Shown here piece by piece: positions 1,983 through 9,084 of a stretch of DNA of 64,000 bases. The notes beneath the pieces are model-generated. The model did no database searches, was not told the DNA's origin, and saw nothing but the letters and a program-made list of their open reading frames with translations. Where the stretch lies: the NCBI GenBank assembly GCA_036517395.1, contig DATDWN010000013.1, positions 2,191-66,190 of the forward strand. Reading direction: 5' to 3'. How positions within the stretch are numbered: the first letter of the stretch is position 1; each line of letters begins with the position of its first letter. The DNA is from Minisyncoccota bacterium. Lineage in GTDB: Bacteria; Patescibacteriota; Minisyncoccia; Phycocordibacterales; DATDWN01. The position numbers and the translations under genes were made by a program.

Positions 1983-2047
1983 TGACCCCTCGACGCAAGG
2001 CCAAGGAACCCTGCGTCGGTGGGTTTTTTGGTATAAAATTGTTGCTT

Positions 2048-2076
2048 GACTTGCATTTGAAAATGACTATACTGTA
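2048..2076 (+). promoter_or_regulatory. Sigma70-like promoter (TTGACT-17-TATACT) upstream of the rRNA leader
   Basis: ttgacttgcatttgaaaatgactatact. Confidence 0.4.
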
Positions 2077-2471: not shown

Positions 2472-2514
2472 GAGGAGCGCATGGGAGAGTAATCTCTCAC
2501 ACAGCGTCCGAGCG
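2472..2514 (+). ncRNA. Conserved structured motif family 2, copy A (GAGGAGCGC–hairpin with TAAT loop–CAGCGTCCGAGCG)
   Basis: A second copy at 8890-8932 keeps the flanks, while the hairpin stem sequence differs in a compensatory way. Confidence 0.4.
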
Positions 2515-2756
2515 CCGTCGAAGCAAAGAATGCGAATAGCATTCTTTATTTTGTTCCGTTCATTATAAGATTTGATCAATTTTTTATAAAGGGTCAGCAA
2601 AGCGAGTCTGAAAAATTTATTTTTCAGACGAGCGCGCGCCCCCTTTATATCAAAGATACCAATCTTTGATAAGAGTTTGATCCTAGCTCAGGATGAACGC
2701 TGGCGGTGTGGATAAGGCATGCAAGTCAAGGGGGCGCATCACATTGAGTACAATGT

Positions 2757-2880
2757 GAATTTAAAATTTTTACTTTAAAATTTAAAAATAATGACTAAAT
2801 GTTTTAATTTTAAAAATTAATTCATTAAAAATTAAGTTTAAATTCTAAATTCTAAATTAAAAATTCGCATCGCGCGCAGC
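2757..2880 (+). other. AT-rich expansion segment / intervening sequence at the tip of 16S helix 6 (V1)
   Basis: It is bracketed by the complementary ggcgcatcac … gtgatgcgtcacc. The content is low-complexity (aaatt/taaaa). Confidence 0.5.
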
Positions 2881-3274
2881 GTGATGCGTCACCGGCGAAC
2901 GAGGTAGTAACACGTGGGTACATACCCTGAAGTCAGGAATAACCAGTCGAAAGATTGGATAATACTTGATGTGATCTTCGGATCAAAGTCGCAAGACGCT
3001 TTAGGAATGGCCTGCGAAGTATCAGCTAGTTGGTAGTGTAATGGACTACCAAGGCTATGACGCTTAGGGGGAGTGAGAGCTTGGCCCCCACCGATGAGAC
3101 TGAGACACGGCTCATACACCTACGGGTGGCCGCAGCCGAGAATATTCGACAATGGACGAAAGTCTGATCGAGCGACACCGCGTGATGGATGAAGACCCTA
3201 GGGTCGTAAACATCTTTTATGAGGGAGAAAGTTTATTGATAGTACCTCACGAATAAGGGGTTTCAAAACTCGTG

Positions 3275-4220
3275 AAATGTGGGTTAAGCACCCACTTCCA
3301 TTTGAAACTTAAAAATTCGTAATTACCGTGCGCGACTTAGGGCCGTGAGGTTCTAAGCAAATTCGGCTTATATGCTGGAAATCTGTAAAGACTGCGCCAA
3401 ACACTTTTAAAAAAAGTGCGAGGTCCTTGACAGACAATCAGCAGGGAAGTCGGTATAATTAAGTAGTGAGTTTAACAAACAGACAAAAGGAAATAATAGT
3501 AGGCACTTTGTTGGGTGACGGATACTTGGAACATGATGGTTTCAAGGCGAGTAGATTGCAGATAAAGCAATGTGATCGCAAAAAAGATTATGTTTTTTGG
3601 CTCTATAACGAGCTGAAAAATTTAGTCAGAACTCCACTCAAACAAAGGAAAGATAACCAGCAATGGTATTTCAGCACCAGATCTCTAGTAGAGTTGGATT
3701 TTTTTAGAAGTCTTTTCTACGGATTTGGGAAAAAAGCTGTACCATCTATTATAAAAGAATTACCATTTTCTTCTCTTAGTCTTGCAGTCTGGTTTATGGA
3801 TGATGGGTCGTTGGATTATAGAGTAAAATACCATTACTCCTTTTCCTTCAGCACTGATTCATTCAATGAGCCAGATGTAAAACTTTTGACAGAATTATTA
3901 TTTGAAAAGTTTGATATAAAATCAAACATTCAGATGGTGGTTTCTCGAGGAAAGAAATATGTAAGACTGTATGTCGGTAAAGACGGAAGAGATAATTTTC
4001 TCTCTGTCGTAAGGCCTCATATTTTGTCCTGTTTTGATTACAAACTACCTCCGATTATAATTGACCCCTCAGAGACTGATCTTGAGAAAGTGAAGACTTT
4101 CAACACAGTGAGATAGAGAGATTTTTTTAAATCTTCTATAAGACGCCGAACCCCTTCCAAATGTAAATTTGTCAGGGTGATGATATAGTCCAATCCTCTT
4201 AGTGATAGGAGAAAAGAAGG
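3275..4220 (+). mobile_element. Group I intron in 16S rRNA (insertion near E. coli position ~515, just 5' of CCAGCAGCCGCGGTAATAC) carrying a homing-endonuclease ORF
   Basis: It interrupts a universally conserved 16S region. A P7/S-element-like gatgatatagtcc lies near the 3' end. The boundaries are approximate (±15 nt). Confidence 0.65.
3466..4116 (+). CDS. LAGLIDADG homing endonuclease (two-motif, single-chain) encoded within the group I intron
   Basis: The two LAGLIDADG motifs are GTLLGDGYLE and LAVWFMDDGS. Confidence 0.8.
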   Translation: MSLTNRQKEIIVGTLLGDGYLEHDGFKASRLQIKQCDRKKDYVFWLYNELKNLVRTPLKQRKDNQQWYFSTRSLVELDFFRSLFYGFGKKAVPSIIKELPFSSLSLAVWFMDDGSLDYRVKYHYSFSFSTDSFNEPDVKLLTELLFEKFDIKSNIQMVVSRGKKYVRLYVGKDGRDNFLSVVRPHILSCFDYKLPPIIIDPSETDLEKVKTFNTVR

Positions 4221-4857
4221 CCAGCAGAAGCGGTAATACGAGTACCCCGAGCGTTATCCGGAATTATTGGGCGTAAAGGGTGTGTAGGTGGTAGTGTTAG
4301 TCATTTGTTAAAACCCGAGGCTTAACCTCGGATCCGCGAATGATACGGCACAACTAGAGGATGGCAGGGATGTATGGAACTCATGGAGTAGGGGTGAAAT
4401 CCGTTGATATCATGGGGAACACCGAAAGCGAAGGCATTACATTGGGCCACTCCTGACACTGAAACACGAAAGCGTGGGTAGCGAATGGGATTAGATACCC
4501 CAGTAGTCCACGCCCTAAACGATGACAACTAGCTTTTCGGAGTATCGACCCTCTGAGAGGCGTAGCTAACGCGTTAAGTTGTCCGCCTGGGTAGTACGAC
4601 CGCAAGGTTAAAACTCAAAGGAATAGACGGGGACTTGCACAAGCAGAGGATTATGTGGTTTAATTCGATGGCAAACGAAGAACCTTACCAAGATTTGAAA
4701 CCCAACTGAAGACAGAGAGAAATTTTTGTTGTCCCACAAGGACAGTTGGGCAGGTGATTCATGGCCGTCGTCAGTTCGTGATTTGAATTGTTCCCTTAAG
4801 TGGGGTAACGAACGCAACCCTCGTTGTCTGTTACACGTATCAGGCGAGACTGCCCAG

Positions 4858-4990
4858 CTTTTTGTCCGGTAGGACATAAAGCTGAATAAAGAATAACGAA
4901 TATTGAATAAAGAATGAATGCAGAATACAAACTGTATTAAATCATTATTCATAATTCACGATTCATTATTCTCTTTTTGTTCGCTAGCGA
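4858..4990 (+). other. AT-rich expansion segment in the 16S hairpin equivalent to E. coli ~1160-1175 (cccagcTTTTTGT…ACAAAAAgctggg)
   Basis: Conserved 16S sequence flanks it on both sides (gactgcccagc … gctgggaggaaggcg). It contains three copies of GAATAAAGAA. Confidence 0.45.
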
Positions 4991-5792
4991 ACAAAAAGCT
5001 GGGAGGAAGGCGAGGATGACGCCAGGTCAGCATGTCCCTTTGATATCTTGGGCTACACACATAATACAATGGCGACTACAACGCGTTGCGACGCCGTAAG
5101 GCTGAGCCAATCGTAATAAAAGTCGCCCCAGTTCAGATTGGGGGCTGAAACTCGACCCCATGAAGTTGGATTTGCTAGTAATCGCGGGTCAGCTATACCG
5201 CGGTGAATACGTTCTCAAGTCTTGTACTCACCGCCCGTCAACTCAGGGGAGTTGGGAGTACCCGAAGTCCTGCATATGCAGGCCCACGGTAAACTCAATG
5301 ACAAAGAGTAAGTCGTAACAAGGCACGGCTAGGGGAACCTGGTCGTGGAATAATTCAATTTGAAATACTTTTCGCTTTGCGAAAGGAAAGTCATATCAAT
5401 CGCAAGAAAGATATGAATGTGTGTCGATTCCAGCCCCAGTTCTGAAACTAAATCTATAATGTCACGGAGTTTATAGTAGGTATAAACTTTGATAACAAAA
5501 ATAATATTGGTATCAGAACTGGAGCTGGAGGACAATGATTGTCTCGTCCTAAAACAATCTGACACTTGGAAAGACAGGAATGAACGGAACAAAATAAAGA
5601 ATGATATACCATCGTGTGGGACACGATGAAGTTGAAAGTTAAAAGTCCATAAAGTTTGTAAAGTAAATGTAACCACAAAAATACCGCTATAATAGGCGGT
5701 ATTTTTGATGCCGAAGTCCTGTACTGAGCTTTGCTCTGGTGCGGGATTGACTTTATACTGGGAAGTGTTATATAATAATAGACGGAGGAAAC

Positions 5793-6062
5793 ATGAATCG
5801 ATTTCGACAAGAAACTGGCCAGTCGGTTCCAAGACTGGTCGTCGTTATCGTTGGACTCGTTCTGGTCTATCTGGCGCTCAGCGCGTCAGAAGGGCCAGGA
5901 CAGGATCCTGTGCCGACTGCTTTGCAGTTGGCGGTGGTTTTCCTGGGCGCCGATGTGGCGCTCATGGCGTGGTTTCGCCTCGATCAGCGCGTTGCGCGCT
6001 GGTGGCGGGGGATGACTCGACCGGACAACCCATATCGGTCGAAGATCATCACACCCAGATGA
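5793..6062 (+). CDS. Hypothetical small membrane protein (two predicted TM helices) in a GC-rich island within the 16S–tRNA-Ile spacer
   Basis: A strong SD (ggaggaaacATG) precedes the ATG. The GC content is >60% against ~38% background. There are no recognisable motifs. Confidence 0.35.
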   Translation: MNRFRQETGQSVPRLVVVIVGLVLVYLALSASEGPGQDPVPTALQLAVVFLGADVALMAWFRLDQRVARWWRGMTRPDNPYRSKIITPR

Positions 6063-6232
6063 CAGCGAGAACCGACGGTTTCAGGAGGGCGACACGCAGA
6101 CAGCCAATGCGTGCCGCCCTTTTTCATTTGTGAAAAATGATTTTTTCTGCTATATTTTTTTAGTTAAATGCGCATGTAGTGAGGTTGGGGTGGGACCCAG
6201 CCGCAAGATCGGAGCGTGACGGCGCGAGGTGG

Positions 6233-6270
6233 GGTCACAGGTATTTTTCACCAGAAAAATACCTGTGACC
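6233..6270. repeat. Perfect 16-bp hairpin (ggtcacaggtattttt/aaaaatacctgtgacc); contains a GGGTCACA motif
   Basis: Read directly. It is followed by a tRNA-like D-arm fragment (agttggtagagca) that does not fold into a full tRNA. Confidence 0.5.
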
Positions 6271-6355
6271 AGTTGGTAGAGCAGTCGACCGACTCCTTAC
6301 AGGAGCTGTACACCTTTTGGATCTTTTTCAGAAGAATAAAATTAATTTGCTTTGT

Positions 6356-6428
6356 GCGCGTGTAGCTCAGTTGGTAGAGCACTCGACTGATACTCGTGGG
6401 GTCCATGGTTCGAATCCATGCACGCGCA
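6356..6428 (+). tRNA. tRNA-Ile (anticodon GAT)
   Basis: Manual cloverleaf: acceptor gcgcgtg/cacgcgc, D-arm gctc-agttggta-gagc, anticodon loop cTGATAc, T-arm catgg-ttcgaat-ccatg. It occupies the canonical position after the 16S. Confidence 0.8.
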
Positions 6429-6497
6429 CAAAGCACGGTAGTCTATTCTTTTGAAAAAGATCTCGAAAGGTCTTGCGAAAGTGTCTCACACTTTCTC

Positions 6498-6534
6498 ACT
6501 CGTGGGGTCCATGGTTCGAATCCATGCACGCGCA
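6498..6534 (+). repeat. Exact 37-nt direct duplicate of the tRNA-Ile 3' end (anticodon-stem 3' side through acceptor)
   Basis: actcgtggggtccatggttcgaatccatgcacgcgca is identical to 6392-6428. Confidence 0.8.
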
Positions 6535-6941
6535 CTTTGAGCAGAATTTGATATAATATAAAATAAAACATCATGATAAATCGCAAATCCACATTTTTCC
6601 TTGGTATTTTTATTTTTCTCATACCTTTTTTGGGCTTACCTAGTTCTTGGAAAACAGCCTTGGTTGTTATTTGTGGTTTGATTCTAGTTTTCCTCTCGGT
6701 AAAAGTTATCCTACCAAGGAAAACTATCGCCAATAGAAGTAGGATGAAAAAAGAAAGATCAATACCCGTCTTTGTTGAAAGCTTGCCAACATATTCGATT
6801 GATAACTCGGAAACAAAAGAAACCCAGCCGGAGATAGAAATAAAATAGCATGTCCGGTAGTAGAAGTTGACATTGCGCCAAAGGCGCATAAAACAGCAAA
6901 AATAATAGATATGATAAAGCTGAAATTAACAACTTATAAAT

Positions 6942-8258
6942 TTGAAATGGCGTCTTGCTTCTAAAGCAATGCTGTTTTCTACTACTGGGATGGTTAAACG
7001 CATTCTTAATAAACATGGCGACATAGTATTTCTATGTCTGGTTATTGTGTGTGTGGTACTGATTCTATTTTTGTTGCCAAGGATTCTCAGTAGTCACTAT
7101 TTTTCTACAGCGGATGAAAAGGCTGTCTCTACCACAACTGCTAAAAAAATTATTTTTATACCTTCCTATGTTTCTACGCCAGAGCCAGTCAAGGGTATAT
7201 ATATGACAAGTTGGGTGGCTGGCACTCCGAGTTTACGGGCAGGACTAGTAAAGCTTATAGACGAGACAGAATTAAACACCCTTGTTATAGATATAAAGGA
7301 TTATAGTGGCAAGATTGTTTTTCCAATCGAGGATAATCCGAAGTTGAAAGATCATGGTTCAGAGGAGGTTAGAGTAAAAGACTTACAGGATTTCATAGAG
7401 ACGCTTCACAAAAAGCAGGTTTATGTTATAGGTCGTATTGCTGTTTTCCAAGACGAATATTTTGTAAAGCATCGACCAGACTTGGCTGTAAAAAATAAAT
7501 CAGGGACGGCAGTCTGGAAAGACAGAAAAGGCATTTCTTGGATTGACCCAGCATCTCGTGAATATTGGGAGTATATCATCCTACTTACAAAAGAGTCTCG
7601 CAAAATCGGTTTTGATGAGATCAACTTTGACTATATTCGTTTTCCATCTGATGGAAATATGCAGGATATATCGTTTCCTCATAGCTCGACAACATCAAAG
7701 GCTATAGTTTTGAAAGAATTTTTTCAGTATTTACAGCACCAACTGATTCTCCCTATGTCCGACATAGGGGACATAGGGGACATAGGGGAGTCGAGATTAA
7801 AAATATCAGCGGATTTGTTTGGCATGACAACAACCGCTGTAGACGATATGGGCATAGGTCAGCTTTTAGAAAACACCTTGCCTTATTTTGACTATGTCAT
7901 GCCCATGGTTTATCCATCTCACTATCCGCCGACCTTTGACGGTTTCAAGGATCCTGAAGCGCATCCCTATGAGATAGTATACTTTGCCATGAAATCGGCT
8001 GTGACTAGGGCGGAAGCTCTGGCCAGTACGACCCCAGTAGTAGACGGAGATACCGTCACTACGGGGCAGGCTGGACAAAGCGTGGTTGATTATAAAAACA
8101 AGCTACGCCCATGGCTTCAGGATTTTGGTTTGAAAATGGATTATGGTCCTGCGGAAGTAAAAGCCCAGATAAAAGCAACGAACGATGTGGGTTTGTCGTC
8201 GTGGGTACTTTGGTCGGCTTCAAACAAATATACTCAATCTGCTTTGAAAGCAGATTAA
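6942..8258 (+). CDS. Putative TIM-barrel glycoside-hydrolase-like protein (DUF4015-like) with an N-terminal TM anchor
   Basis: Motifs …KGIYMTSW… and GFDEINFDYIRFP. It contains a 9-nt ×3 in-frame tandem repeat (DIG×3) at 7757-7785. Confidence 0.35.
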   Translation: MKWRLASKAMLFSTTGMVKRILNKHGDIVFLCLVIVCVVLILFLLPRILSSHYFSTADEKAVSTTTAKKIIFIPSYVSTPEPVKGIYMTSWVAGTPSLRAGLVKLIDETELNTLVIDIKDYSGKIVFPIEDNPKLKDHGSEEVRVKDLQDFIETLHKKQVYVIGRIAVFQDEYFVKHRPDLAVKNKSGTAVWKDRKGISWIDPASREYWEYIILLTKESRKIGFDEINFDYIRFPSDGNMQDISFPHSSTTSKAIVLKEFFQYLQHQLILPMSDIGDIGDIGESRLKISADLFGMTTTAVDDMGIGQLLENTLPYFDYVMPMVYPSHYPPTFDGFKDPEAHPYEIVYFAMKSAVTRAEALASTTPVVDGDTVTTGQAGQSVVDYKNKLRPWLQDFGLKMDYGPAEVKAQIKATNDVGLSSWVLWSASNKYTQSALKAD

Positions 8259-8407
8259 TTTAGACTTTAGACTTTAAAATTTTTAAATTAAGTTTAAATT
8301 ATAAATTTTAAATTAAAAATTGAGAGTGTTGACAGAGCCACTTATCATTTAATTCATCTTGTTGTATAATACAAAGCGATTATTAATTAAAAGTTTATTC
8401 CATAATC

Positions 8408-8869
8408 ATGTCTCAAAAATTTAAAAAGGGTTTCACCCCAGTACCAGAGCGAAGCTCGGTACGGGGTTTCACGCTTATCGAGTTACTTGTGGTTATTGCC
8501 ATCATAGGTATTTTATCTTCCATTGTTTTAGCATCACTTAACTCCGCCAGAGATAAAGCAGGGAATGCTGCTATAAAGGAAGATTTGCACGGACTTCGCA
8601 GTCAGGCGGAAATTTCTTATGACAACAACAATAATAATTATAGTACAGTCTGCGCCAACCAAAATGTTATAAATGCCATAAACAATGCTTTAATAGCGGG
8701 TAGCGATACTGGGACAGTGGCAACAAGATGCAACAATAGCGCAACCGCATGGGCAGCCAATGTAAAGTTGAAGACGGTTGAAGGTACTAGTAATTACTGG
8801 TGTGTGGATAGTACTGGAGTAGGAAAGGGGGAGGCTAATGAACTCGGTGGAGCAACCGTTTGTAGTTAA
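8408..8869 (+). CDS. Type IV pilin / pseudopilin with a class III signal peptide. The leader is extended by a 36-nt in-frame palindromic insertion.
   Basis: The prepilin motif is …KKGF|TLIELLVVIAIIGIL…, interrupted as KKGF-TPVPERSSVRGF-TLIEL. Confidence 0.7.
   Translation: MSQKFKKGFTPVPERSSVRGFTLIELLVVIAIIGILSSIVLASLNSARDKAGNAAIKEDLHGLRSQAEISYDNNNNNYSTVCANQNVINAINNALIAGSDTGTVATRCNNSATAWAANVKLKTVEGTSNYWCVDSTGVGKGEANELGGATVCS
8436..8466. repeat. Family-3 palindromic hairpin element (cccagtaccagagc-GAA-gctcggtacgggg) inserted in the pilin leader and flanked by a 9-bp direct repeat (gggtttcac)
   Basis: Related copies lie at 43452-43482 and 56655-56685. The core AGAGC-GAA-GCTC is shared with 40788-40815 and 55369-55394. 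Confidence 0.7.
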
Positions 8870-8889
8870 TATTTTTATCTGCGACGAGA

Positions 8890-8932
8890 GAGGAGCGCGT
8901 GAATGTGTAATCACATTCACAGCGTCCGAACG
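8890..8932 (+). ncRNA. Conserved structured motif family 2, copy B; followed by GC-rich nested hairpins at 8940-8998
   Basis: gaggagcgcgtgaatgtgtaatcacattcacagcgtccgaacg. The 9-bp perfect hairpin gtgaatgtg-taat-cacattcac replaces the gggagag-taat-ctctcac hairpin of copy A. Confidence 0.4.
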
Positions 8933-9084
8933 AGGAGTAGCAATGGTAAAACCCCGCCCCTCTGGGGCGGAACAGGGGTCCAGGGCTTGCCCTGGGGTTT
9001 CATACCATTGATAGACTAAATCTGAACAAAATAAACCCTATTGTTAGAGTTTATTTTGTTTTTATTGTATAATGCAGTGAAATT

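Follow-up and report, generated by a model that had tools for sequence, protein, structure and literature searches.

A covarying hairpin repeat family of Patescibacteria/CPR genomes, with copies in a 16S rRNA leader and behind a pilin gene

Why should a short piece of a 16S rRNA leader reappear behind a pilin gene, with the same hairpin but other letters in its stem? Both pieces lie in the window analysed here, a 64,000-nt stretch of contig DATDWN010000013.1 from a Minisyncoccota bacterium. The first-pass annotation had described a ~45-nt motif occurring twice, with stems that are completely different yet base-paired, and had suggested a structured RNA or protein-binding site. A pattern scan bears out two similar hairpin-bearing copies at these positions: GAGGAGCGC-N21-CAGCGTCCGA has exactly two matches in the window, 2472-2511 (copy 1) and 8890-8929 (copy 2), both on the + strand, and it matched in 0/100 shuffles. 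Both copies lie where described, and the homology is longer than ~45 nt. The copies align over 62 nt (2453-2514 against 8871-8932) at 76% identity, and this homology takes in an upstream T-rich stretch and CGAC. The homologous segments, 2454-2527 and 8871-8945, both on the + strand, adopt the same irregular hairpin fold, with folding z-scores of -2.4 and -3.9 for the two hairpins.

The geometry of the two hairpins is identical, running through GGA, a bulged G, CGC, RTG, N6, TAAT, N6', CAC, a bulged A, GCG and TCC. Both stems are indeed paired, but the whole stem does not differ: because GTG/CAC is common to both copies, the difference is confined to the inner 6 bp. Three of these six pairs show double compensatory changes between copies 1 and 2, and one changes from a mismatch to a pair.

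Both window copies are members of one previously undescribed, CPR-wide hairpin repeat family. The genome-wide and cross-genome search that the first-pass annotation had proposed, carried out with a pattern scan and a covariance model, yielded over 150 copies from Patescibacteria/CPR genomes and metagenomes. The scan of species-representative genomes contributed 31 CPR copies, which stood among chance matches in GC-rich genomes, and 120 metagenomic loci gave 127 covariance-model matches. The family has so far been found only in Patescibacteria/CPR, where its carriers range over Saccharibacteria, Paceibacterota and Microgenomates-type lineages. Rfam 15 in gathering mode returned only rRNA and tRNA for the window and only rRNA, tRNA and group I introns for the CPR loci; in E-value mode, the matches of copy 2 and of one canonical copy stayed at noise level (10-24 bits). 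Searches of the literature, for the motif sequence and for repeats in CPR bacteria, returned no match. A viral origin was rejected: the strict pattern is absent from IMG/VR, and a blastn search of 50,697 phage records gave no match. A loose pattern has only four matches, all hairpin-less and in GC-rich contigs.

The earlier proposal that structure is kept rather than sequence holds across the family, as does the covariation on which it was to be checked. Paired cells make up 92.8% of the alignment and 93.7% of a larger one, against 79% in shuffles and 26-44% for slid registers, and double changes occur in 13/23 pairs and, in the larger alignment, in 22/23. Additional copies therefore exist and keep their pairing, and the lack of either, which the first-pass annotation had named as counter-evidence, was not seen. 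Diverged copies replace CGC/GCG by CAT/ATG or CAA/TTG. In the larger alignment, the ratio of G.U to A.C pairs is 84:19, so one strand is the folding strand; covariance-model scores are 70-93 bits on the sense strand and 11-17 bits on the antisense strand. These data show that the structure is selected on one strand only. The folded strand could act either as RNA or as single-stranded DNA.

The units are modular and non-autonomous, with sizes from ~75 to 330 nt. They consist of a TTTAYT box, a long irregular hairpin 1, an A-rich/T-rich second hairpin that may bear extra GC-rich branches, and a closing YTTTAT(T). Hairpin 1 spans ~60 nt; at its foot are TTTAYT and a covarying basal stem, P1, which is mostly TTCGAC/GTCGAA. 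Then comes an internal loop with GAGCGA on both arms, in which two tandem G.A pairs would flank two Watson-Crick pairs. In the middle part, the stems are GGA/TCC and CGC/GCG, interrupted by a single bulged G and a single bulged A; GTG/CAC comes next, and the cap is a 6-bp stem that is free to vary. We rejected a K-turn as the internal loop, there being no register with a 3-nt bulge beside G.A/A.G and a Watson-Crick C-stem; covariation at 17-63 and 18-62 supports a symmetric loop.

The 16S gene starts at 2673, and copy 1 stops 159 nt short of it, in good agreement with the ~150 nt reported earlier. A 16S promoter, TTGACT-16-TATACT, was found at 2046-2073 (+ strand) by a promoter scan, and copy 1 therefore lies inside the leader transcript. 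Its T-rich 5' junction (TTTTTTACT, 2454-2462, + strand) is the TTTAYT box of the family, as judged from the upstream logo. Hairpin 1 occupies 2463-2521 on the + strand (fold; covariance model R1, 77.9 bits, E 3e-23) and is built from P1 CCGAC/GTCG, the internal loop AAGTGA / GAGCGCC, then GGA-G-CGC-ATG, and a cap with the variable stem GGAGAG/CTCTCA and the loop TAAT. This upper stem is identical to that of the L072/L158 copies in other genomes. Hairpin 2 (AAAGAATGC/GCATTCTTT), followed by ATTTTGTTCC, lies at 2525-2557 (+ strand) and matches the intrinsic-terminator pattern of a hairpin and then a T-run at 2525-2547; its position, inside the 16S leader and 5' of the processing-stem arm, is incompatible with efficient termination.

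The 3' half of hairpin 2 is also the start of that arm. Complementarity places the 5' arm of the 16S processing stem at 2536-2564, overlapping the 3' end of copy 1, and the 3' arm at 5579-5607, both on the + strand; the arms are 29 nt long and 97% complementary. The sequence of the 3' arm also stands after the 16S of the relative L011, and the core of the 5' arm, TTTTGTTCCGTTC, is conserved in the L013 leader. The leader further contains a module resembling the second domain (2586-2655, + strand), in which AAAGGG ... CCCCCTTTAT encloses GCAAAGCGAG and a hairpin. It matches R1 weakly, with 16.5 bits at 2580-2651, and is a gap in the alignment with L013. Copy 1 itself is missing from the homologous L013 16S leader, in which the stem arm and the promoter, together with the GTAC.GGTGCT that follows it, are conserved.

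E. coli carries boxB-boxA-boxC just 5' of its 16S processing-stem arm. Copy 1 has the same position relative to the arm in the window, and the T-rich ends of the element, C.CUUUAUU, resemble the boxA core CUCUUUA. Copy 1 might thus be an rRNA antitermination (boxB-boxA-like) signal, with the other copies being the same signal elsewhere, but we consider this very improbable. A better boxA candidate (GGTGCTCTGAAA / GGTGCTTTAAAA) directly follows the conserved promoter in the window and in L013, whose leader is without the element, and most copies are found outside rRNA operons, randomly oriented.

Copy 2 begins 2 nt past the pilin stop codon at 8867-8869, directly after the pilin gene as had been stated. 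Its T-rich 5' junction (TATTTTTAT, 8870-8878, + strand), directly 3' of the stop, was recognized from the upstream logo and from the empty site in L011, which retains one TTTTAT. Hairpin 1 follows at 8879-8940 (+ strand; fold; R1 70.4 bits, E 1e-20), with a degenerate P1, the internal loop GAGAGA / GAACGAG, the variable stem AATGTG/CACATT and the loop TAAT; its upper stem is identical to that of the copy at L073:1613-1686. The GC-rich cluster of three hairpins reported 3' of copy 2 is present at 8941-9011 (+ strand; fold, z -6.5), but it is a single branched second domain, in which one outer stem (CAATGGTA/TACCATTG) bears two GC hairpins, CCCCGCCCC-tct-GGGGCGG and CCAGGGC-ttg-CCCTGG. A homologous domain follows the L101 copy, with a compensatorily changed outer stem (AAAGGGT/ACCCTTT). 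Copy 2 is without a T-run.

The host terminator of the pilin gene, an AT-rich hairpin with a T-run at 9026-9064 (+ strand; fold), is conserved in the element-less L011. The whole of 8879-9013 is absent at the syntenic L011 site, where the pilin terminator and the next promoter are conserved. Judging from this alignment, the pilin terminator is not part of the element, and copy 2 and its branched domain are inserted between the pilin stop codon and that terminator. The element hairpin is found at contig ends in 7/10 pilin-locus assemblies. A hypervariable stem at the pilin locus was considered and rejected, because what differs in L003 and L009 sits at contig ends and has the look of sequencing error.

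The two window copies belong to two of four pairs of filled and empty sites (copy 2/L011, copy 1/L013, L153/L174 and L135/L228). Compared with the empty L174, L153 has 80 nt after CTTATT, ending in CTTATT; compared with the empty L228, L135 has 77 nt after AACTAC, ending in GCTTAC. The metagenome Ga0210057 holds nine near-identical composite copies with at least six different flanks, bounded directly after TTTACT and directly after ...GTAGTTTACT. Head-to-tail tandem copies occur in L098, L124, L137 and L214. The upstream logo of 122 copies shows TTTATT at -15..-10, with its A at 96%, and is flat beyond -18. The left junctions are all TTTATT/TTTACT/CTAC; the right end reads TTAY(T) as well, and the TTTAYT motif may be either an end of the element or a duplicated target. 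At the 3' end of the family, the closing sequence is YTTTAT. Terminal inverted repeats are absent, the left ends (TCGACGAGCG..., GGCCGTCCAG...) showing no complementarity to the right ends (...AATACCC, ...CGGGGTAG). The 40 nt upstream of the copies fold better than those at control TTTATT sites (-7.7 vs -4.8 kcal/mol, p 9e-7), and insertion is shown to favor, in many cases, T-tracts behind terminator-like hairpins. A skew-proxy test for the strand bias that lagging-strand targeting would produce gave 36/57 (p 0.06), which does not demonstrate such a bias.

Relative to genes, 17 copies are sense, 24 antisense, 24 convergent and 15 divergent, and one lies antisense between atpH and atpA, inside the operon. 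No promoter signal was seen at a fixed distance from the copies. An independent sRNA gene was rejected for this reason, and because reading TTTATT as a -10 box would remove the covarying P1 strand. The random orientation, the lack of a promoter and the antisense atpH/atpA copy together indicate that the copies are neither cis-regulatory RNAs nor sRNA genes, and we count this in favor of mobility. The earlier suggestion, a structured RNA or a protein-binding site, holds in part: copy 1 does belong to the 16S leader transcript. The family as a whole is a dispersed repeat, as evidenced by insertion polymorphisms, TTTAYT junctions, tandems, random gene orientation and the lack of promoters of its own.

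The neighborhoods of the copies consist of housekeeping genes, and the 120 neighboring ORFs show no enrichment of transposases, integrases or reverse transcriptases. In L193, the element lies between two unrelated small ORFs. The window has a Y1_Tnp gene (985-1617), flanked by hairpins of its own (CACTTGGCGG...CCGCCAAGTG); a link to it was rejected, because these hairpins differ from the element and Y1_Tnp homologues are close to 4 loci only. No tnpA-bearing parent element with matching hairpins was found near the loci examined.

Could the units be tiny cassettes, and hairpin 1 a folded integron attC-type site on which a tyrosine recombinase acts at the TTTAYT core? The architecture is attC-like, with P1, a 6/7-nt internal loop, a stem with one bulge per arm and a variable cap; the structure is strand-specific in both, and both keep structure over sequence, with two stems around an unpaired centre, extrahelical bases and a variable end. 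Direct repeats of the core stand at both unit ends, tandem units share a single core between them, and some P1 3' strands read GTTGAAA or GTTGGAA, near GTTRRRY. Most copies nevertheless depart from the R-box consensus RYYYAAC/GTTRRRY, their P1 covaries freely, and their bulges are on opposite arms. The element lacks the consensus boxes, and true cassettes are much larger than its units. Housekeeping genes surround its dispersed copies, no gene-cassette array or integrase adjoins any of them, and we regard an attC-type site as very unlikely.

The rRNA operons raise a more serious alternative, in which hairpin 1 is primarily a functional RNA, the binding or cleavage site of a conserved CPR protein, and mobility or duplication merely spread it. 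The partner would be a processing enzyme, for example an RNase III-like one, or a protein that recognizes tandem G.A pairs, and the role would be to mark transcript ends, stabilize mRNAs or aid rRNA maturation. All rRNA-operon copies (5/5) are sense; those of the window, L061 and L220 precede the 16S gene, and those of L072/L158 and L194 sit between 23S and 5S. About 6 of ~130 distinct copies adjoin rRNA genes, an estimated several-fold excess over the expectation from several hundred intergenic regions. The orthologous L158/L194 spacer copy is nearly identical, although the adjacent 5S has diverged. Copy 1 directly adjoins the 16S processing stem, and its hairpin 2 uses a strand that the processing stem also needs, so that the two compete. 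Features of the element that are common in RNA include G.U pairs, tandem G.A pairs, CUUG-type loops and a hairpin with a U-run. From one CPR class to another the core is kept, and upper stems differ within one genome. Against these observations stand the random orientation to flanking genes, with antisense copies in operons, the lack of promoters of their own, and the close relatives that do without the element in the same 16S leader (L013) and behind the same pilin gene (L011); the L188 23S-5S spacer is also without it. Mimicry of a protein site, or origin as an rRNA fragment, was rejected, as the element shows no similarity to 16S or 23S or to any rRNA helix that would suggest such mimicry. 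Overall, we hold a primarily functional RNA to be possible, with odds that are clearly against it.

Our preferred explanation, to which we give roughly even chances, is a new CPR-wide, non-autonomous, single-strand hairpin element that is moved in trans by a putative enzyme. The data show units inserted at TTTAYT sites, often in the T-tract that follows a terminator-like hairpin, and in either orientation relative to genes. The conserved lower two-thirds of hairpin 1 may form the handle for a trans-acting enzyme specific for single strands, whose likely substrate would be folded single-stranded DNA, as for IS200/IS605 ends and REP sequences, with TTTAYT as the point of cutting and joining. Either T-rich end can pair with the A-rich segment that follows hairpin 1, and this segment may serve as a guide. 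In the window, on this reading, one unit entered the 16S leader immediately 5' of the processing-stem arm and the other the interval between the pilin stop codon and the terminator, and both are therefore co-transcribed as passenger RNA structures. Some observations sit less well with a mobile element, among them the housekeeping neighborhoods with no enrichment of mobile-element genes, the sense-only copies of the rRNA operons and the 23S-5S spacer copy that is better conserved than its adjacent 5S. Upper stems also differ within one genome while the same types recur across phyla, which recently amplified selfish repeats would not usually show. The nearly invariant core seen across lineages, which is partly an artefact of exact-pattern ascertainment, could also reflect a host function, and besides mobility the element might have a role at the RNA level.

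Among known systems, class C group II introns choose sites directly 3' of the stem-loops and T-tracts of intrinsic terminators. The likeness is one of target choice only: the element is without intron domains or reverse transcriptase and is 10- to 20-fold smaller. Correia/NEMIS, ERIC, RUP and BOX repeats are likewise small, interspersed, intergenic, found in either orientation and a source of hairpins in mRNAs, but they are MITEs with terminal inverted repeats and the target duplications of DDE transposases, whereas the element has no inverted termini. The element shares with IS200/IS605 ends and their derivatives without a transposase the absence of inverted termini, a subterminal hairpin, a strand-specific structure, a short specific left-junction sequence (TTAC in IS608; TTAY/TTTAYT here) with a similar right-end sequence, and an internal segment that can pair with the ends, as in the guide principle (PMC6006769). 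It differs in having one dominant hairpin rather than two similar ones at left and right, no cognate tnpA-carrying parent was found, and the skew proxy did not demonstrate a lagging-strand bias.

REP-type sequences are short, extragenic, non-autonomous hairpin repeats, mostly behind genes or near terminators and often co-transcribed (PMC3733652, PMC6006769). The REP/BIME/REPIN-RAYT systems resemble the element in these first respects, and both are thought to be recognized as single-stranded hairpins (PMC3733652, PMC6006769). The element has no GTAG or CGTC tag, however, and its ~60-nt hairpin is about twice as long as the REP palindrome (20-40 nt) and has conserved internal loops and bulges. 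It clusters head-to-tail, while REP dimers are head-to-head or tail-to-tail (PMC3733652), and it is conserved across phylum-level CPR lineages, while REPs are species-specific (PMC6006769). It also does not flank the window Y1 gene, which has its own inverted hairpins. TIGR-Tas arrays have unpaired, variable dual spacers, box C/D motifs and an adjacent Nop-domain tas gene (PMC12045711); such an array was rejected, as the variable part of the element is base-paired, its loops are conserved and its neighbors include no tas-type gene.

More tentatively, the hairpin can be given a wider meaning, with the chances clearly against it. It may be the recognition module of an undescribed CPR-wide single-strand transposition/recombination system, one that would use a single hairpin and a TTTAYT target, prefer sites behind terminators and have an enzyme that is not encoded by the element. 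Alternatively, it may be a CPR-wide RNA domain that a conserved protein binds or cuts and that was recruited into rRNA leaders and spacers.

The genomes of CPR bacteria are tiny and contain little non-coding DNA, and to our knowledge there is hardly any information on their repeats, mobile DNA and non-coding RNAs. Here is a strongly covarying structure that is found from Saccharibacteria to Paceibacterota and repeatedly inside rRNA operons. It poses a practical problem, as its hairpin breaks short-read assemblies and spawns false ORF calls, and a covariance model is ready for the annotation of CPR genomes. The element offers a handle on a putative single-strand enzyme activity in CPR bacteria, and on the ways in which structures inserted into their rRNA leaders are tolerated or put to use. 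If true, either of the two wider readings would mean a new class of structured nucleic-acid element specific to reduced CPR genomes.

The window comes from a member of the Paceibacterota (Parcubacteria, CPR): the protein encoded at 9085-10929 matches an NCBI ‘Candidatus Paceibacterota’ entry exactly, and the 16S rRNA gene (2673-5360) holds a LAGLIDADG-containing insertion. Within it, the pattern GAGGAGCGC-N21-CAGCGTCCGA is found in two places on the + strand, 2472 and 8890, and in none of 100 shuffles. These occurrences mark two copies of a hairpin-forming repeat, one in the 16S leader (copy 1, 2454-2527) and one behind the pilin gene (copy 2, 8871-8945); a covariance-model scan detected no others in the window. 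Their likeness also takes in a T-rich box and CGAC further upstream (76% identity over 62 nt), and both adopt the same irregular fold, hairpin 1, with GGA/TCC, a bulged G, CGC/GCG and a bulged A on the opposite arm, topped by RTG/CAC, a variable stem of six pairs and a TAAT loop. Within this variable stem, three pairs carry double compensatory changes, which bears out the first-pass annotation of a twin motif with a compensatory hairpin. Its description of the stems as completely different holds for the inner six pairs; the remainder of the stem is common to both copies.

The genome-wide and cross-genome search with a covariance model that the same annotation called for has yielded further copies, at least 97 distinct ones in metagenome loci. 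When one genome per species was scanned for the exact pattern, at least 115 loci came up, the majority of which lie in GC-rich genomes, lack the hairpin and are therefore taken as chance matches. Among the matches listed, 31 in low-GC loci have the same extended architecture, and their lineage, where recorded, is always Patescibacteria (Paceibacterota, Saccharibacteria, Nomura-, Taylor- and Roizmanbacteria). A stricter pattern gave at least 120 metagenome loci, in the first 100 of which a model built from the 31 genome copies found 127 copies, 97 of them distinct. The element was absent from viral collections: the strict pattern had no match in IMG/VR, the loose pattern only four in viral collections, all hairpin-less on GC-rich contigs, and blastn against phage records none.

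Pairing is maintained throughout the family. Standard pairs occupy 92.8% of paired cells in the 31-copy alignment and 93.7% in that of the 97 distinct copies, compared with 79.5% and 79.3% in column shuffles and 26-44% and 27-42% with slid registers; double changes are found in 13 and 22 of the 23 pairs, respectively. The invariance of the core columns in both alignments is partly by construction, because the search pattern fixed them. In diverged copies found by the covariance model, CGC/GCG is replaced by CAT/ATG or CAA/TTG, so this stem is also structural. The internal loop carries GAGCGA on each arm, a direct rather than an inverted repeat, and there is covariation at its two central positions (17-63 and 18-62); we infer two tandem G.A pairs that enclose two Watson-Crick pairs. 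G.U pairs outnumber A.C pairs by 84 to 19, and covariance-model scores are 70-93 bits on the sense strand versus 11-17 bits on the antisense strand; the selected form is therefore a single strand, either RNA or single-stranded DNA.

Filled and empty sites were found for both window copies. In the closest relative that shares the gene order DUF4015, pilin, ATPase, the latter two genes are 55 nt apart; this spacer retains the AT-rich terminator as well as the TGTATAAT promoter but lacks the equivalent of window 8879-9013, and two more relatives also lack the copy 2 segment. For copy 1, the retrieved locus L013 (L numbers denote loci from other genomes or metagenomes) has a complete 16S, the promoter of the window (2046-2073, TTGACT-16-TATACT, then GTAC.GGTGCT) and the same leader arm, TTTTGTTCCGTTC, without the element. 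Elsewhere, L153 has an 80-nt insert behind CTTATT, terminating in CTTATT, where L174 is empty. A 77-nt hairpin-1 module, starting behind AACTAC and terminating in GCTTAC, is present in L135 and absent in L228, inside a larger composite repeat of ~330 nt in metagenome Ga0210057 (L135, L152, L228 and related loci). Hairpin 1 is one of the interchangeable hairpin modules of this composite, which starts with GGCCGTCCAGAATGCC and ends with GGGGTAGTTTACT. Among its nine near-identical copies, six have left flanks that differ right up to the TTTACT that adjoins GGCCGTCC, and right flanks diverge directly past GTAGTTTACT. One composite precisely without the hairpin-1 module shows that small elements nest within each other. 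It is close to certain that both window copies belong to a mobile, non-autonomous CPR repeat family.

One in two copies sits at the edge of its contig, and at the pilin locus 7 of 10 assemblies terminate in the hairpin region (L003-L010; window 8840-9010), inside or just past the hairpin. Two assemblies show C runs and scattered substitutions; such irregularities appear to reflect failed sequencing or assembly of the hairpin and GC-rich cluster, not strain variation.

The conserved region starts sharply at TTTATT, 5-6 nt 5' of the basal stem, a box whose A is conserved at 96%. The logo is flat farther upstream, which rules out a promoter at a fixed distance. Head-to-tail tandem copies have one T-box in common. 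The 40 nt upstream of the box average -7.7 kcal/mol versus -4.8 at control TTTATT sites (p 9e-7), with 33% of cases and 8.5% of controls at -10 kcal/mol or lower; the element therefore often sits directly behind a terminator-like hairpin. Behind hairpin 1, an A-rich segment (CAAAG, CTATAG and similar) and a T-rich one whose end reads YTTTAT(T) pair to form hairpin 2, which is either minimal or encloses one to three GC-rich hairpins with CTTG or TCT loops, often with AATACC in front. What had been noted as a three-hairpin cluster after copy 2 is the branched form of hairpin 2: it is alignable with the domain behind the L101 copy, with compensatory changes in the outer stem (CAATGGT/ACCATTG in the window, AAAGGGT/ACCCTTT in L101). 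Terminal inverted repeats are lacking. The 57-aa ORF across copy 2 (8838-9011; also called in L001) and the 182-aa ORF across the leader repeats (1841-2389) are almost certainly spurious.

Besides copy 1, there are sense copies ahead of 16S (L061, L220) and within the 23S-5S spacer (L072/L158, L194), and one copy past 5S has the opposite orientation (L188/L223/L226). Window 2536-2564 and 5579-5607 are 97% complementary and evidently form the 16S processing stem, whose 3' arm is conserved in L011. Since its 5' arm starts within hairpin 2 of copy 1, the copy is part of the leader transcript, hairpin 2 and the long-range stem compete for the same strand, and the copy's T-run cannot terminate efficiently there. 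Between L158 and L194, the orthologous spacer copies are almost identical whereas the adjoining 5S has diverged, which leaves room for a role at the RNA level. That the element is a functional RNA module, for instance for processing, stability or protein binding, that was spread around is the main rival to the enzyme-based reading given below; it is possible but the less likely of the two. Against a role as RNA, L013 and L188 lack the element in the 16S leader and 23S-5S spacer, respectively, and a better boxA candidate lies directly behind the conserved 16S promoter. Next to that candidate, a nut-like antiterminator is very improbable.

The window leader also contains a separate hairpin element (2114-2254) with 25-nt inverted termini, TTCATCCGCACACCAAGTTTGCCAT and ATGGCAAACTTGGTGTGCGGATAAA, missing from the L013 leader and with a relative in the L072/L158 23S-5S spacer. 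An ORF start at 2102 (MFVDIHPH) was rejected as a gene, being conserved leader sequence. AT-rich repeats (AAATTAAGTTTAAATT.TAAATT.TAAATTAAAAATT) in direct and inverted arrangement occupy 2753-2865, in the first 16S insertion region, and 8255-8321, upstream of the pilin promoter. Further downstream, an exact 38-nt duplicate of the tRNA-Ile 3' half (6392-6429) follows at 6498-6535, 106 nt downstream; with a degenerate tRNA-like fragment at 6270-6292, this looks like integration scars at the tRNA gene. Two small ORFs of 63 and 89 aa (1791-1982, 5793-6062) occupy islands of 58-60% GC in a ~40% GC genome, and each comes with a Shine-Dalgarno sequence and a terminator-like hairpin. One of them is placed between 16S and tRNA-Ile; a different small ORF takes that position in L011.

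Copies are randomly oriented with respect to the ORFs on either side: 17 lie in sense between co-directional genes, 24 are antisense, 24 convergent and 15 divergent. One copy is antisense between atpH and atpA. By a replication-strand proxy, 36 of 57 copies are on the G-rich strand (p 0.06). GC skew in the window itself is positive from 1 to ~48 kb and negative past that, possibly reflecting a replication terminus or origin, or a gene-orientation switch. Neighbors are housekeeping genes, and mobile-element genes are not enriched. Y1_Tnp was rejected as a partner, its homologues being near only four loci and not linked to the element. The window's own IS200-like/RAYT-like Y1_Tnp gene (985-1617) lies between inverted copies of another palindrome, CACTTGGCGGCttaGCCGCCAAGTG (940-1690), with CTACTAT/ATAGTAG tails and a third copy inside the gene (1414-1440), a REPtron-like arrangement unrelated to the hairpin element. 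Around this segment the secF 3' end is duplicated (665-736 and 1677-1748; 72 nt, 85% identity), suggesting a ~1 kb insertion at the end of secF.

Rfam gave no match, even at permissive thresholds, and the element fails each of the defining tests of Rfam families, REP/RAYT, DDE-type MITEs, attC sites and TIGR arrays; attC-like recombination is improbable. We see about an even chance that a trans-acting enzyme would recognize the folded single strand, presumably DNA, and join it at TTTAYT, with the A-rich segment perhaps serving as a guide. Such a mechanism would be most like that of IS200/IS605 ends and REP sequences. The element itself shows only part of the features that define the IS200/IS605 group. 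The element is an interspersed hairpin repeat, of which we found no description in the searchable literature. It stands apart in being conserved across phyla, in having one long hairpin with tandem G.A pairs and a TTTAYT junction, in its modular nesting and in settling repeatedly in rRNA operons.
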